DNA of 64,000 bases from Vicinamibacteria bacterium (GTDB taxonomy: Bacteria > Acidobacteriota > Vicinamibacteria > Marinacidobacterales > Marinacidobacteraceae). Made by a program: the position numbers and the translations under genes. The notes beneath the pieces are model-generated. The model was not told the origin of the DNA and did no database searches. It saw only the letters and a list, made by a program, of their open reading frames with translations. Positions 54,017 to 60,900 of this stretch are shown piece by piece. Each line of letters starts with the position of its first letter. Within the stretch, counting starts at the first letter, position 1. The stretch is taken from contig OZ219815.1 of the NCBI GenBank assembly GCA_964291235.2, positions 1,152,001-1,216,000 on the forward strand, given 5' to 3'.

Positions 54017-54109
54017 GGAGAGGTACCGAAGTGGCCGTAACGGGGGCGCCTCGAAAGCGCTTTGTCCGGTGAAGAGCCGGGCACGTGGGTTCGAATCCCA
54101 CCCTCTCCG
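54017..54109 (+). tRNA. tRNA-Ser(CGA), CCA not encoded
   Basis: Acceptor GGAGAGG/CCTCTCC with G discriminator, anticodon arm GGCGC-CTCGAAA-GCGCT, long variable arm, GTGGGTTCGAATCCCAC T-arm. Confidence 0.95.
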
Positions 54110-54312
54110 CTGCCGGGGGGTTTCCCGGGGGTGCCGATTCGCTCCCGGAAGATCGCCGTAACCCCCGTATAAACCGTGGTATACTGGCTCTCATAGCCGC
54201 TTTGCCGTTCCCTTCGAATTCGGGGGGTTCCGGCCGAATTCGTGGGACCGTTCGGGGTTCGAGTTCGAATTGCGAGTTCGATCCCACGAAAAAAACGCGG
54301 TAGGAAAAACCG

Positions 54313-55482
54313 ATGGCAGCGATGACCGCAGCGAAGGCGAAGGCGCTCCGGGAGCCGGGCAAGTACCGGGCCGAGCAGACCCTCTATCTCCGGGTGAGGC
54401 CGAGCGGCCGAAAGTCCTGGGTGCAGCGCCTCACCATCCACGGGAAGCGCCGCGACATCGGCCTCGGGCCGTTCGAGCTGGTGTCCCTGGCCGAGGCCCG
54501 GATCAAGGCGTGGGAGAACCGGCGCGCCGTGTTCGAGGGGCGCGACCCTCTGGCCGAGCGCCGGCGGGCGAAGGCCCCCACCTTTCGGGAAGCCACGGCC
54601 CGGACGCTGGAAGGACTGCGCTCGCAGTGGCGAAATGGGAAGCATGCGGCGCAGTGGGCGACGACCCTCGAGACGTACGCATTCCCGACGCTTGGGGAGC
54701 AGCGGATCGATTCGATTCGCGGAGAGGACGTCCTGCGGGTTCTGCTGCCGATCTGGACGGCGAAGGCGGAGACGGCGCGGAGGGTCCGCCAGCGGATTCG
54801 GGCGGTGCTGTCCTGGGCGCAGGCCCACGGTTTTACGTCCGGCAACGTGGCGGCGGAGGGAATCGACGGCGCGCTACCGAAGGTGAACGGCCGGAAGACG
54901 CATTTCCGCGCCCTTCCCTACCAGGAGGTAGGAGAGGCCCTGGCGGTGGTGGACGGATCCCCAGCAAGTCTCGCGGCCCGTCTCTGTTTCCGGTTCCTGG
55001 TCCTGACCGCGGCGCGGTCCGGCGAGGCTCGCGGGGCGCGTTGGAGCGAGATGGATATGAAGGCCCGCGAGTGGCGCATCCCCCGCGAGCGGACGAAAAC
55101 GGGTGCGCCGCATCGGGTCCCCCTGTCTAACGAGGCGATGGCCGTTCTGGAGCGGGCGCGTGCTTTGGACGACCGTAGCCAGGTGGTGTTTCCGGGCCGC
55201 CAGCGCGGGCGGGAACTATCCGACATGACGCTGACGAAGATCCTCCGGGAGCGGGGGTTGGCGGACCGGGCCACCGTCCACGGATTCCGCTCTAGCTTTC
55301 GCGACTGGTGCGCGGAGGGGGGCGCGCCGCGAGAGGTCGCGGAAGCAGCGCTGGCGCACACGGTCGGGGGAGTTGAGGGGGCGTATTTCCGCTCTGATCT
55401 GTTCGAGCGCCGCCGGGCGCTCATGGAGTCCTGGGGAGCGTTCCTGACTGACTCGACGCGAGCTCGGGCTGTGCCAGGGTAG
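54313..55482 (+). CDS. P4-like tyrosine integrase with Arm DNA-binding domain
   Basis: LYLRVRPSGRKSW..GLGPFELVSLAEAR; LTAARSGEARGARWSE, TVHGFRSSFRDW, ALAH, AYFRSDLFERRR (R-H-R-H-Y intact). Confidence 0.95.
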   Translation: MAAMTAAKAKALREPGKYRAEQTLYLRVRPSGRKSWVQRLTIHGKRRDIGLGPFELVSLAEARIKAWENRRAVFEGRDPLAERRRAKAPTFREATARTLEGLRSQWRNGKHAAQWATTLETYAFPTLGEQRIDSIRGEDVLRVLLPIWTAKAETARRVRQRIRAVLSWAQAHGFTSGNVAAEGIDGALPKVNGRKTHFRALPYQEVGEALAVVDGSPASLAARLCFRFLVLTAARSGEARGARWSEMDMKAREWRIPRERTKTGAPHRVPLSNEAMAVLERARALDDRSQVVFPGRQRGRELSDMTLTKILRERGLADRATVHGFRSSFRDWCAEGGAPREVAEAALAHTVGGVEGAYFRSDLFERRRALMESWGAFLTDSTRARAVPG

Positions 55483-56236: not shown

Positions 56237-56266
56237 AGTGTGCCATAACTGCCATTGTCAAGGACT
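56237..56266. other. lox-like recombination site, left (IRL)
   Basis: AGT-GTGCC-ATAA-CTGCCA-TTGT-CAAGG-ACT: dyad arms around a 6-bp spacer; 13-bp core is the exact reverse complement of 57703-57715. Confidence 0.78.
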
Positions 56267-56430
56267 AATGTGTAGCTGATAACACACTACTGTCACGCTA
56301 TGTCATGTTCGGTGGGTTTACAGGCGCTAGTTGGTGATTTTCGATCACGAGAGGCGGATCGGCACGGAGCCACACTCGCGCACCGATCCCCAACGCCGAT
56401 TGGGGCGGGGACCCGGCCGCGCGCAGCGAC

Positions 56431-57468
56431 CTAGAGGAAGGCGGCGCCCGCATGGTCCTCGAAGGCTTCCGCTTCCCGGATGTACCGCAGGACCGTGCGA
56501 GGGCTGGTGTGCCTGGTGATTTCCATGATCTTCTCCAGCCGCGCTCCATGGATCGCCGCGCTGGTCACGAACCCCGCTCTAAGCGAATGGCCCGAGTAAT
56601 CCGCAGGATCCAGCCCAATCGCTTGCACGTAGTGCTTCACCAGACGTGCTACGTCGGAGGGGTGCATCGCCCTTCCCTGCACGACTCCGCCCTGCCGCAT
56701 CGTCTGGAAAACCGGTCCGCGGACTATTCCCGCCAGCGCGAGCCACTTTTTCAGCCGCGCTACGGGCCGGACCAGGCTCCCTTCCGGTACCGGAATGCTC
56801 TGGCCTTCGCCGAACTGGTCGGTCTTGGACTTCCGGATGTGGACGAACATGCCGGAGGCACAACGCGCCGGGCCCAGAAACTGAAGGTCTCGCAACTGGA
56901 GCCCGCAGATCTCCGACCGGCGCAGCGCCGCTGCGAAACCGATGGCAATCAACGCCGCGTCCCGCGTTGCGATGCGCCGGAACCTCCCGTGTGCCGCGAA
57001 CACATCACAGCGTGACAGCATGCGAGCAATCTCGTGCTCCCGTAGCGCCTTCACCCGCCGCGGCTGTCCATCCGACAAGCGCCTGAGCCCCTGCAGGACC
57101 CTGTTCACCTTCGGGTCGGTCGTCGGTGGAATCCGGCCCGCCTCGCGATACCGCCGATTGATCCCGGCCAGGAAGATCCTCAGGGTACCCACCGCTAGAG
57201 GCCTTTCACTACGCGTCGTGGTGTCTCGAGCTTGAAGTCCTGAAGCCAACGTCACCAGAAAGCCGGCGACGGTGTCGGGCGTCGCAGCCATGGGATCGCT
57301 TTCGTTCTCTTCGCAGTAAGCGGTAAACCGCTGCCAGCCTCTCTCGTAGGCGGCGTTGGTGTTTGCGGACACGGATGTCCGAATGGCCTCGGTCACCAAG
57401 GACTCGGCGCCGGTTCGCTGTTCGTGCGCTTTGTCGCTCGAACCTCGCTTCGCTAGGGCCTGGGGCAA
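56431..57468 (-). CDS. Cre-like tyrosine recombinase (putative invertase)
   Basis: SAM-like N-domain (TNAAYERGWQRFTAYC), RDAALIAIGFAAALRRSEI, IRKSKTDQ, HSLRAGFVT, TRH..TVLRY. Confidence 0.92.
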   Translation of the reverse strand: MPQALAKRGSSDKAHEQRTGAESLVTEAIRTSVSANTNAAYERGWQRFTAYCEENESDPMAATPDTVAGFLVTLASGLQARDTTTRSERPLAVGTLRIFLAGINRRYREAGRIPPTTDPKVNRVLQGLRRLSDGQPRRVKALREHEIARMLSRCDVFAAHGRFRRIATRDAALIAIGFAAALRRSEICGLQLRDLQFLGPARCASGMFVHIRKSKTDQFGEGQSIPVPEGSLVRPVARLKKWLALAGIVRGPVFQTMRQGGVVQGRAMHPSDVARLVKHYVQAIGLDPADYSGHSLRAGFVTSAAIHGARLEKIMEITRHTSPRTVLRYIREAEAFEDHAGAAFL

Positions 57469-57695
57469 GGATCGGTCCTCCTGGACCGCAGGCCTCGCGA
57501 GTGTTCCCGTTTTCCAGTCGACGCCGGCTCACCGAACCCTCGGTTGGCCGTCACCGACGCAGTCCCCGCGGAAGGTGTAGTCGGACGGTCAAAAACGCGC
57601 GTCGAGCGGGGTCGGCTTGGCGCGCCGAGCAAGAAGGGGCTCGCTCTCCAGCGCAAGTTGGCCGCATTCCAAGTCATTGAATCTAGGCCACCAAT

Positions 57696-57725
57696 AGTAC
57701 CCGACAATGGCAGTTGTGCAGGAGT
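57696..57725. other. lox-like recombination site, right (IRR), inverted relative to IRL
   Basis: AGT-ACCCG-ACAA-TGGCAG-TTGT-GCAGG-AGT; spacer TGGCAG is the reverse complement of CTGCCA. Confidence 0.78.
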
Positions 57726-57930
57726 AGTGTGTTTCCGATGGCACGGAGCCAACGCGGCCGCGCGTAGTCGCGCTCTGGTGAGCGGCCTGCGCTGGTGCGA
57801 CTCAGTTCAGAGATCGTGCTTGAGGCTCCAACGTGCCGCCAGCCCTTCACCTAAGTGCCGAATTGAGCCGGGTCGCCCGCAACAAGTCCAGTTGTCGCGA
57901 GCAAACCGCGGGTGCCGTTGCTCTGCGAGG

Positions 57931-60900
57931 ATGCGGGGCCGGCGACTTGGCGGGATTGCGTTGCAAGGGGTAGGACGCTGCGCGCGGGCAAGCCTGGCGC
58001 GCCTGAACGCGTTGCTCACCGCCCTGGCGATAGCCGGGCTGACGTTGTTGTCCGCCCCGACGGTGATGGCCCAGTCAGACATCTGGTCGGCCTCGCTCGT
58101 CCCGAAGAGGTCGCCAAGTACTTTCTTTTGGGGCTGCGCCAACAACGACTCTGATCATTTGTGCACCGACCAGCTCTCGCCCGACTCCTTCACATACAGC
58201 GGCACGACCTATCAGGTCACAGAGGTCACGGTGAAAACTCTTCTCGACGGCACCACGGAGCTAGTTTTCGGCCTCAACCACGCGATTCCCAAAGCATTGT
58301 CGCTTTACGTCGGCAGTCGGGAGTACTCCTTTGGCGACGCACAATTCGCTGGCGACAAGGTCGCGAAGTGGAGCCCCGCTGGCCTGACCTGGGTCGGTAA
58401 TTCTACGGTTTCGCTAAGCCTAAAGCTGGACACGACGTCGCCGGCCGTCTCGAGCGCGACGGTGGACGGCGCGACGCTGACCGTCAACTTCGATGGGAGC
58501 TTGGACACCAGCTCCGTGCCCGCGCCCGGCGACTTCCACGTCACTGTGGGGAGCAGTCGCCGCCATGTCGCCGCAGGCGGCGTAAGCATCGTCGGGAAGA
58601 CCGTGACTCTTACCCTGTCATCGGCGGTCATCGCTACCGACACGGTCAAGGTGGGCTACACGCAGCCGAGCGCCAACGCGCTGCAGGACGCGAACGGCAA
58701 CAAGGTGGCGACGTTCACCGATCAGGACGTGACCAACAACTCGCCGCCGGTGATCTTGTCGGTGGCGACCACGTCTACGCCCGACCACGATTCGGATCGT
58801 AGTGGGACGCCCGACACCTACTCGCTCGGCGGGAAGATCGCCGTGGAGGTCACGTTCAGCGAGGCCGTCGCGGTCAGCGGCGGGAACGCCAACGTGAGGC
58901 TGCGCCTCGACCTGGGCGCGGACGATGCCGATCTTGACAACAGCAGAAAGCTGCTTCAGCTCCATAGCGCGAACGGCCCGACGCTGCGTTTCGAGTACAC
59001 GGTCACAGCCGCGGACACGGACCCCGACGGGATATGGGTGCAGAAGCTGAGCTCGGGCAGCGTGTTGGGCCTGGCCGGCGGCGCGACGATCACGAGCCCG
59101 CGCACGAGCCATAACGCCGTGCTGACGAAGGACGGCCTGCCGACCTCGGGCGACCCGAACCACAAGGTGGACGGCAGCGTGGACCAGTCGCCGATGTTTC
59201 AGGGCGCGGTGGTGAACGGCAAGCGCCTCACGATCACCTTCAACCGGAACCTGGACGAAAGCTCGGTGCCCCTGCCGGCCGCCTTCCCGGTGACCGTGGG
59301 GACGAGCAGCCCCGCGCATCCCGCCGAGGTGGACATCGCCGGTGCAACAGTGGTCTTGACCCTGTCTTCGCCGGTGGGCGACGCCGACACGGTCAAGGTG
59401 AAGTACACGAAGGCGGATGCCGGGGCCAACCCGTTGCGGAGCATCACCAGCATCGAAGCGGCGGCGTTCGCCGACCAGGAGGTGACGAACGAGACGCCCT
59501 CGGGCGTTCCGACGATGTTGTCGGTGTCGATCACCTCGGCCCCGTCACTGGATGCGGACGGCGACGGGACGCCGGACACGTACGGCCAGGGCGAGACGAT
59601 CTTCGTGGACGTCCGGTTCGACCAGCCGGTCGGGGTGGACGACGGCGGTGCGGCGGGCAACGTCTTCGTGTGGCTGGACATGGCCCCGAACGGCGCCCTG
59701 CGGCTGGACGAGGACCGCCGGGCGCTCCCCTTCCATGGTCTCGGCCGGGGCGGCAGGATCATGCGGTTCCAGTACACGGTGACAGCCGCTGACCGGGACG
59801 CCGACGGGGTGTTCGTGCAGCCGGACCTCGACAACGACACGGTGGTGTTCCTGAAAGGGGGCGCGAGCGTCAAGAGCCCGACCACGGACCGGCTCGCCGT
59901 ACTGAAGTTTGCGGGGCTTCCGTTCGATGGCGACACCAGCCACCGGGTGGACGGCAGCGCGATCGTCACCGCGCCGGCCTTGTCGAGGGCAGTGGTGAAC
60001 GGGCGGACTCTGACCCTCAGGTTCAGCGAGGCCCTCGACCCGTCGTCGGCGCCAGCGGGCGAAGCCTTCACGGTGAGCGGGGGTCGGTCCGGCACCGGCA
60101 CCGCGATCGTCTCCGGCAACATGGTGACAGTGACGCTGGACGCGGCCGTGGAGCGTGGCGAGGCGGTGACGGTGAGCTACGCCGCGCCGAGCAGCAACCC
60201 TCTCCGGGACGCCGACGGCAATGCCGTGGCGAGTTTTTCGGCCCGGAGCGCGACGAACGTGGAGGCCCGCCGTGAGCCGCTCGCCGACGCTGGCCCCGAC
60301 AGAACCGTGGGGCTAGGAGCGCGCGTGAGGCTCGACGGCTGGGCGAGCGTCGATCCAGACGGCGACACGCTGACGTACGCCTGGACCCAGACCGGCGGCC
60401 CAGCCCTGAACCTCAGCGGCTCCCGCAGCATAACGGCGTCGTTCACCGCGCCTGAAGTGGCCGGCACGCTGACCTTCCGTCTCACCGTCACCGATCCGGA
60501 AGGGCTCTCCGATTCGGACGAGGTGACGGTGACGGTGCGCGACCTTGAGATGAGCTTCGGCGACGCGCGGGTCGGGAGGCTGCTCTTGTCCACAGGCGAG
60601 ATGATGGAGCCGTTGCAACTGCCGGAGGCGAGCGGCGGGGGGGGTGGGGTCCGCTACGGGCTGACGTCGACGCCGGCGGGCCTGGCGGGGCTGGATCTCG
60701 ATCCGGTGACGCGATGGCTCACGGGCACGCCGACCGCGGCCGGGACCTTCACGTTCATGTGGCGCGCCACCGACGAGGACGGCGAGACGGCGGCCATCGC
60801 CTTTCTGGTGAGGGTGAACGGGGTGCCGGCCGCCCGGGCGGGGGCCGATTTCAGCGTGGACCCGGGGGCGCCGGCACGGCTCGACGGATCGGGAAGCGCG

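Follow-up and report, generated by a model that had tools for sequence, protein, structure and literature searches.

What is the function of a site-specific recombinase whose own gene is all that lies between its two recombination sites? This question is raised by a locus in a 64,000-nucleotide stretch of DNA from a Vicinamibacteria bacterium (assembly GCA_964291235.2, contig OZ219815.1, positions 1,152,001 to 1,216,000; hereafter the window, numbered from its first letter), in which a gene for a Cre-like tyrosine recombinase is enclosed by two lox-like sites in inverted orientation (Table 1). A first-pass annotation, made from the letters of the window, had proposed that the recombinase inverts the segment carrying its own gene. 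We conclude that the cassette is a real inversion cassette and further infer that one of its sites divides a promoter; the complete reading, a self-contained inversion switch with a split promoter controlling the gene for a large repeat protein next to it, we put at a probability of roughly 0.6.

Table 1. Features of the recombinase cassette and its surroundings, in window coordinates
Feature	Position	Strand	Description
Stop-proximal site ('DN')	56237..56266	.	outer arm 56237-56248, spacer CTGCCA 56249-56254, inner arm TTGTCAAGGACT 56255-56266
TTGACA, candidate -35	56256..56261	-	in the stop-proximal inner arm, reading away from the recombinase gene; moves with the segment
Cre-like tyrosine recombinase gene, 345 aa (P0001)	56431..57468	-	Pfam, active-site alignment, Foldseek
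Block CCAAGTCATTGAATCTAGG	57670..57688	.	inside the segment, adjoining the start-proximal site; conserved in the L006 island
Start-proximal site ('UP')	57696..57725	.	inner arm 57696-57707, spacer TGGCAG 57708-57713, outer arm 57714-57725
TAGTGT, candidate -10	57725..57730	+	at the outer end of the UP outer arm, fixed outside the segment; faces the repeat-protein gene
tRNA-Ser(cga)	54017-54110	+	ARAGORN
P4-type integrase	54313-55482	+	Pfam Arm-DNA-bind_3, Phage_int_M, Phage_integrase
Small conserved open reading frame (ORF), 139 aa	55657..56076	-	78% amino acid identity to the L006 ORF
Secreted repeat protein, ~1655 aa	57931..62898	+	Pfam SWM_repeat, PKD, Big_5, He_PIG

Paired sites around a Cre-like recombinase gene

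Both 30-bp sites read exactly as first reported, the stop-proximal (left) one as AGTGTGCCATAA, CTGCCA and TTGTCAAGGACT and the start-proximal (right) one as AGTACCCGACAA, TGGCAG and TTGTGCAGGAGT, the asymmetric spacers being exact reverse complements of each other. A perfect inverted core of 13 bp, AACTGCCATTGTC, is located at 56247-56259 on the plus strand and at 57703-57715 on the minus strand, and the wider inverted arms returned by the repeat search comprise 27 nt with 81% complementarity, i.e. 22 of 27 positions, again in agreement with the annotation. The same annotation had described each site as a 12-6-12 dyad; the 12-6-12 division holds, fitting all 25 cassettes of the family survey described below, but the dyad symmetry is weaker than described, amounting by eye to about 6-7 of 12 within each single site. 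With up to one mismatch allowed, the core matches the window at the two sites alone (0.01 matches expected per shuffle), and in the 3.45-Mb genome it matches these two sites plus one place on the other contig, with one mismatch. Comparison of the 600-bp flanks of the gene, on the other hand, showed that 2 of 100 shuffles reach an inverted match of 13 bp, and for this reason the repeat, judged from the window alone, is suggestive but short of decisive. The same shuffles speak for a reading in which the repeat is a chance match, or a pair of operators for autoregulation, and no recombination takes place.

The segment between the sites, about 1.45 kb in length, holds one credible gene, as had been claimed. 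Its product has the catalytic domain of the tyrosine recombinase superfamily (PF00589, E 1.7e-12, 47.9 bits against a cut-off of 27.1) together with a SAM-like N-domain (PF02899), and the residues R183, K215, H294, R297, H320 and Y329, which make up the R-K-H-R-H/W-Y signature, align with the active-site columns of Cre and are invariant in 35 homologues. A phmmer search against the PDB placed 17 sequences of Cre or its derivatives first (2.5e-7 to 2.9e-6), followed by XerD at 1.9e-4; the best Cre match (E 2.5e-7) covers recombinase residues 88-334 at about 21% identity. When an AlphaFold model of moderate confidence (mean predicted local distance difference test score, pLDDT, of 71) was compared by Foldseek, Cre (1.6e-11) came ahead of XerA (5e-7), XerD (4e-6), IntI (2e-5) and also XerH; the ranks shown down to 31 are all Cre, and the first non-Cre protein, XerA, stands at rank 34. 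An identity of the XerC/XerD type was rejected, as the scores against the NCBIfam Xer models fall far under the curated equivalog cut-offs (XerD 44.9 of 329.6 bits, XerC 39.5 of 335, XerA 48.2 of 220). Nor is the recombinase gene a core gene, being absent from all 40 related genomes compared, which include 15 of the same genus. By sequence and by modelled fold, the enzyme is nearer to Cre, its closest solved protein, than to Xer, integron or phage-lambda-type integrases, which bears out the Cre-like label given to it at first, and close to its gene lie the inverted arms around an asymmetric spacer that characterize a Cre-type target, in dimensions that differ from those of lox.

As a check of its own proposal, the annotation had asked for similar inverted flanks around homologous recombinase genes. 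The check was carried out on 39 gene copies with 1.5-3 kb of flank, namely the window, L086 and 37 copies from genome searches (of roughly 2000 homologues identified, the nearest, at 75-80% identity, lie outside this set), and the homologues passed it. An exact TTGTCAAG arm is found 18-177 nt past the stop codon, on the opposite strand, in 27 of the 39 copies, and in 25 of these 27 arm-bearing copies, parsed as 12-6-12, the identical 6-bp spacer recurs in inverted orientation just upstream of the gene, as opposed to 12 matches in 688 mismatched pairings of spacer and locus. Cognate spacers occupy a consistent upstream place, with an A before and a T after them (a G in L086). All four half-sites conform to a consensus that ends in GCTCnnTAA; the stop-proximal inner arm opens with TTGTCAA in every case, and the other three vary with the enzyme. 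Among the 25 cassettes there are 22 different spacers, which correspond to about 22 independent lineages because one spacer is common to three orthologous loci and a fourth locus.

Strand exchange by a tyrosine recombinase requires identical spacers in the two partners, whereas mere binding does not. As far as a comparison of sequences can tell, the covariation of the spacers is the pattern expected of tyrosine recombinase partner sites, and we are highly confident that the sites are genuine partners. The survey thereby already contradicts the reading as a chance match or operator pair: cognate pairing stands far above that of mismatched loci, binding alone needs no identical spacers, and two related cassettes, L183 and L186, differ in orientation at the spacer, as described in the next section. 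We regard this reading as very improbable.

L006/L166, the closest relative of the island on which the window cassette lies, has orthologous sites with a different shared core, AAAGGACATT, and therefore both sites changed together. A search for the 13-bp core of the window near five relatives had found none at the right places within 3 mismatches, which suggested that the sites are not conserved; this was rejected when the aligned intergenic DNA of L006 showed the orthologous sites. Alignment of this otherwise unalignable intergenic DNA between the window and L006 also brought out the block CCAAGTCATTGAATCTAGG. In L006-L010, where the cores are 9-10 bp long, no consistent signal emerged from a blind inverted-repeat search that penalized mismatches harshly.

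The two arm-bearing cassettes for which no partner was found are L183 and L170. In L183, the C-terminal end of an IS3-like transposase and the end of the element (1300-1460) lie directly upstream of the gene, at the position of the start-proximal site, and this insertion probably locks the cassette. L010/L170, on a complete Thermoanaerobaculia chromosome, has the family gene about 280 nt from the 3' end of a tRNA-Ser(tga) and convergent with it; the TTGTCAAG site is present in L170, with no partner within 450 nt upstream. Family genes also occur in tandem, 2.6-3.7 kb apart (L007-L009, L171-L173 and L180/L201), the second copy being without a TTGTCAAG site of its own. In L180 the TTGTCAAG site lies 1354 nt past the stop codon, and for this reason the segment may hold a further gene.

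On the loci compared, the cassette architecture is a property of this clade, given that seven distant relatives (30-43% identity) have neither a TTGACA arm nor a convincing inverted repeat; three of the seven are on plasmids of cultured Alphaproteobacteria, and these plasmid loci are without sites. Collections of plasmids and phages contained only relatives of less than 60% identity. Pattern scans of metagenomes and genomes returned mostly Xer-like genes of SAR11 at about 30% identity, which matched because they share one peptide pattern; the only close relatives were L006-L010 and L086.

Orientation of the cassette

Two related cassettes, L183 and L186, share the spacer TCCCTG and encode recombinases that are 85% identical in amino acid sequence. 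With the genes oriented alike, the downstream flank of L183 (2568-3941) corresponds to the upstream flank of L186 in reverse (1366-1), at 83% over 1398 bp. At base level, L183 and L186 agree in outer arm and flank, which continue into the TTGTCAAG inner arm in the former and into the start-proximal inner arm in the latter, and the change occurs at the spacer. The cassette is thus in opposite orientations against one homologous flank in two related genomes. On its other side, L186 has the upstream flank of L184 (97%) and of L202 (78%) in reverse.

Identical crossover sequences in inverted orientation, as found in inversion switches, are present in the window and in 25 of the 27 arm-bearing copies, and the reaction taking place at the sites is probably inversion. 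The interpretation of the locus as an inversion switch, put forward at the outset, gains support from the covariation across the family and from the opposite orientations in the two related genomes; taken with the sites themselves and the Cre-like active site, these lead us to infer inversion in the window organism as well.

The closely related genomes G168 and G212 have a flank in common (97% identity; L184 and L186) at which different cassettes stand, facing opposite ways, with the spacers GCCCCG and TCCCTG and recombinases of 79% amino acid identity; in G212, the other flank of L186 is 1.6 Mb away. This pattern suggests that cassettes have been replaced, or that a large rearrangement has occurred, at cassette loci. 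Beside the L186 cassette, at 1115-1162 and 1237-1299, there are repeats of about 45 nt, with dozens of copies at 90-100% identity in G212 and G184, that look like repetitive extragenic palindromic (REP) elements or miniature inverted-repeat transposable elements (MITEs).

Different cassettes facing opposite ways at a shared flank can also be taken as a sign that the sites mark a mobile module, comparable to the dif modules of Acinetobacter plasmids, which is exchanged between places and inverts only incidentally. Such exchange would agree with the presence of up to 5 copies per genome, with the diversity of the neighbours (thioredoxin-like, JmjC, fn3, P450, patatin, GAF kinases and CoA-transferases) and with the position of the window copy on a tRNA-Ser island. 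Yet with 22 spacers distributed over 25 cassettes, almost no two of those surveyed could recombine together; copies within a genome are about 55-65% identical to the query, with no recent duplicates; and neither an empty site nor a circular form was seen. Moreover, between the window and L006 the DNA outside the sites (86% nucleotide identity over the integrase gene and the small ORF) is more conserved than the cassette gene (77%). We therefore consider a mobile module improbable and retain inversion as the preferred reading.

Weighing against an active switch is the orientation seen closest to the window. Assembled Logan contigs of four runs (X1, X2, X3 and X5) contain no inverted form, but contigs drop rare variants, and for this reason the absence is weak counter-evidence. 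In X1, X2 and X3, contigs traverse the two sites in the orientation of the assembly, and the 10 listed joints show no change of strand. The comparison of L183 and L186, in turn, concerns one junction only, the IS3-like insertion having replaced the other side in L183. L006/L166 and a relative in X5, about 95% identical, share the orientation of the window, the X5 relative being colinear with it across the right site. This uniformity could mean that the sites are real in the family and the window copy is frozen, a relic that is carried on the island and no longer inverts. However, the gene is intact with every catalytic residue present, the 13-bp core of the window is the longest perfect core shared by any of the 25 pairs of sites, and 23 of the 25 family members are assembled in the same orientation, so the orientation of the window says little. 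A frozen relic seems to us quite unlikely.

Among the sequencing runs listed as containing the stretch, none is an RNA run. Three further observations concern the contigs themselves. Breaks of X1 unitigs near 57661-57690 were rejected as a signal of the site, as they fit minor-strain bubbles. A contig of low depth in X1 (3.2x against about 52x) passes directly from 55453, close to where the integrase gene ends, to 56235, which is 2 nt short of the left site, and may represent a minor variant that lacks the region of the small ORF or has it replaced. In X5, labelled a viral metagenome and originating from another study, contigs match the recombinase gene and the region upstream of it (window 56359-57991) at 84-98% identity, with 96 nt at 57747-57842 replaced by 107 other letters.

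A candidate promoter divided by the start-proximal site

The invariant part of the stop-proximal inner arm includes, on the complementary strand, TTGACA in 27 of the 39 copies, and the other three arms vary at those positions. TTGACA is the exact sigma-70 consensus for a -35 element. At the opposite end of the cassette, a conserved ACGnTA, i.e. TAnCGT on the other strand, terminates the outer arm of the start-proximal site, and TAnnnT at the equivalent offset is found in this arm in 22 of 25 cassettes, compared with 4, 1 and 1 of 25 for the other three arms. To model the inverted state, the 25 loci were inverted by script, which places TTGACA 18 nt from TAnnnT in 22 cassettes and 17 nt from it in one more (L199), 23 in total; in the assembled state, the two spacings occur in one cassette each (18 nt in L186 and 17 nt in L187), 2 of 25 in total. 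The outer arms of L186 are of the swapped type, as expected of a flipped state, and those of L187 are atypical, with the hexamer at the other site. In the assembled window the hexamers are 1.4 kb apart, and upon modelled inversion TTGACA and TAGTGT face the repeat-protein gene, leaving a leader of about 200 nt. A Pfam-supported gene reads away from the start-proximal side in at least 12 of 24 relatives, from very diverse families, and the genes beyond the stop-proximal side are likewise diverse.

In the mechanism that we propose, the recombinase would bind the two 12-6-12 sites flanking its own gene, which are inverted and have the spacer CTGCCA in common, and strand exchange within the spacers would flip the 1.45-kb segment, recombinase gene included. 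TTGACA would move with the segment, and TAGTGT would stay fixed beyond the other site. The assembled orientation would correspond to OFF, with the hexamers 1.4 kb apart, and the inverted orientation to ON, with the hexamers 18 nt apart on the plus strand, facing the gene for the 1655-aa repeat protein at 57931, presumably the regulated gene. In the inverted state the recombinase gene would also be co-directional with the repeat-protein gene, even if no split promoter formed. Judging from the hexamers and their spacing, the formation of a split promoter across the recombination site is an evenly balanced proposition.

Several features weigh against the proposal. The -10 candidates match the consensus at T1, A2 and T6 only, the spacing of 18 nt is one more than optimal, and ACGnTA could alternatively be part of an extended protein-binding arm. 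A scan of the assembled sequence for consensus promoters and terminators found 0 of either; the lack of promoters fits the OFF state yet adds nothing to the argument. As regards the family counts, 12 of the 39 copies have no TTGTCAAG within 450 nt, among them truncated genes and second tandem copies, and shared descent means that 22/25 and 25/27 are inflated and cannot be read as independent trials, although the 22 different spacers lessen this dependence for the pairing count.

The alternative that bears most directly on the promoter accepts that the cassette inverts and takes the TTGACA arm for a half-site that sets the order of cleavage or directionality, or for a host-factor site, but not for half a promoter. 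The output would then be read-through from the recombinase promoter, which would reach the small ORF in the assembled orientation and, once the segment is inverted, the repeat-protein gene. The weakness of the -10 candidates fits this alternative, as does the co-directionality of the recombinase and repeat-protein genes in the flipped state; furthermore, the sequence that follows TTGTCAA in this arm is similar to the cognate arms, which makes binding of the arm by the enzyme probable. Against read-through, TTGACA is an exact consensus that stays constant across enzymes whose other three arms differ, and a TAnnnT correctly spaced from it is restricted to the single arm that inversion would bring alongside (22 of 25, as against 1 to 4 of 25 elsewhere). 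We judge read-through to be somewhat unlikely and continue to prefer the split promoter as the output of the switch.

Extended to the whole clade, the proposal would be that these Cre-like recombinases are minimal portable ON/OFF switches, each with its own gene as sole cargo, a private spacer that precludes cross-talk and a promoter made in one orientation from a mobile -35 and a fixed -10, widespread in Acidobacteriota-type genomes and carried on islands into other bacteria. We put this generalization forward tentatively, as one that could well fail.

Further short repeats surround the cassette. A second perfect inverted repeat of 11 nt, AACACACTACT / AGTAGTGTGTT, at 56281-56291 and 57723-57733, is not colinear with the main repeat, its left copy being within the segment and its right copy outside, overlapping the -10 candidate. 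A perfect direct repeat of 12 nt, GGCACGGAGCCA, is found at 56361-56372, inside the segment, and at 57740-57751, just beyond the right site.

Island context, significance and known systems

The cassette follows, in order, the tRNA-Ser, the integrase gene and the small ORF, and is itself followed by the repeat-protein gene; the tRNA and the integrase form the left end of a genomic island, recognizable by the tRNA, the adjacent integrase and the absence from relatives. In L006, a metagenome-assembled genome, the parts follow another tRNA-Ser in the same order, with a divergent large fn3 protein at the position matching the repeat protein. Homology between the two (86% in nucleotides) starts inside the tRNA, at 54084, even though the tRNA of L006 is Ser(gga), and it seems that the island uses the 3' end that tRNA-Ser genes have in common. 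At the far (right) end, no repeat of the tRNA 3' end of at least 14 bases was found on the contig.

The genes on the two sides of the cassette point outward, as first described, with the small ORF on the minus strand and the repeat-protein gene on the plus strand. The accompanying label of a DUF6680-like protein was not confirmed, DUF6680 being the sole Pfam match of the small ORF and lying below threshold (E 0.11, 12.6 bits against a cut-off of 23.2). The small ORF is located downstream of the recombinase gene and is co-directional with it in the assembled state. For the repeat protein, the raw ORF begins at 57544, and the likely start is the ATG at 57931 (MRGRRL..., followed by a signal-peptide-like stretch).

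Genes annotated as 'site-specific integrase' are usually read as mobile DNA, and here a whole clade of them appears to consist of gene switches. If confirmed, the arrangement would be unusual twice over, in that the recombinase gene is the sole content of its own segment and in that the promoter is split across the site. In full-text searches of the literature, with subscription journals and supplementary files outside their scope, neither a tyrosine recombinase segment with its own gene as sole cargo nor inversion with a split promoter was found described. Confirmation would also provide a readable set of phase-variable genes for Acidobacteriota-type and symbiont genomes, in which phase variation has been little studied; in the window, the proposed phase-variable gene encodes a giant secreted repeat protein. 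For engineering, the family would, if the proposal is true, supply Cre-like enzymes by the dozen, each with a predicted target of 30 bp and with natural differences in spacers and arms. It would amount to a natural collection of recombinase/site pairs that are orthogonal to one another and have targets readable from sequence, and several switches could coexist in one genome without cross-talk.

Among known systems, Cre itself has a phage or plasmid function, whereas the role proposed for the window cassette is that of a chromosomal switch. Cre/loxP and other Cre-type enzymes, such as Dre and Vika, resemble the window system in their catalytic residues and in having two inverted arms around a short asymmetric spacer that matches between partners (PMC10250229). 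The differences lie in the dimensions, 12-6-12 in the window and 13-8-13 in lox (PMC11260471), in a protein identity of about 21%, and in the arrangement of the sites, which in the window flank the enzyme's own gene in inverted orientation, with one arm fixed as TTGTCAAG in the arm-bearing members of the family.

Control of a surface adhesin by a tyrosine recombinase that inverts DNA is described for fimS and ipuS of E. coli, with the enzymes FimB, FimE and IpuA; in these systems an element of 260 bp carries the whole promoter, and the distal repeat of ipuS is located within ipuA, the recombinase gene, of which no more than the final 11 codons invert (PMC6083910). The window locus is similar in that a tyrosine recombinase is encoded at the switch and that the presumed target is a surface protein, but differs in that the entire recombinase gene is the only cargo and that only the -35 half of the promoter would move. 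The Fim enzymes furthermore belong to a different clade, the best match of the window enzyme being Cre.

Hin of Salmonella, acting on hix, is likewise encoded inside its own invertible segment, between two outward targets. It belongs to the serine recombinases and depends on Fis and an enhancer, and its segment carries a complete promoter, in contrast to the tyrosine recombinase of the window. XerC/XerD-dif has a 6-bp spacer between arms of about 11-12 bp, close to the sites described here, and the Acinetobacter plasmid dif modules are bounded by sites in inverted orientation. The Xer enzymes, however, act in trans and as a pair, whereas the window family has a private spacer and its own enzyme for each cassette. 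The shufflon recombinase Rci is a tyrosine recombinase that inverts DNA between sites with one conserved and one variable arm, and creX of Streptococcus pneumoniae lies within the ivr hsdS locus that it shuffles. Both systems shuffle coding segments among several repeats, whereas the window has one pair of sites and no exchange of coding sequence, and its output would be transcriptional. What seems to set the window cassette apart from all of these systems is the combination of a whole recombinase gene as the only cargo, a private spacer in each cassette and the movement of half a promoter.

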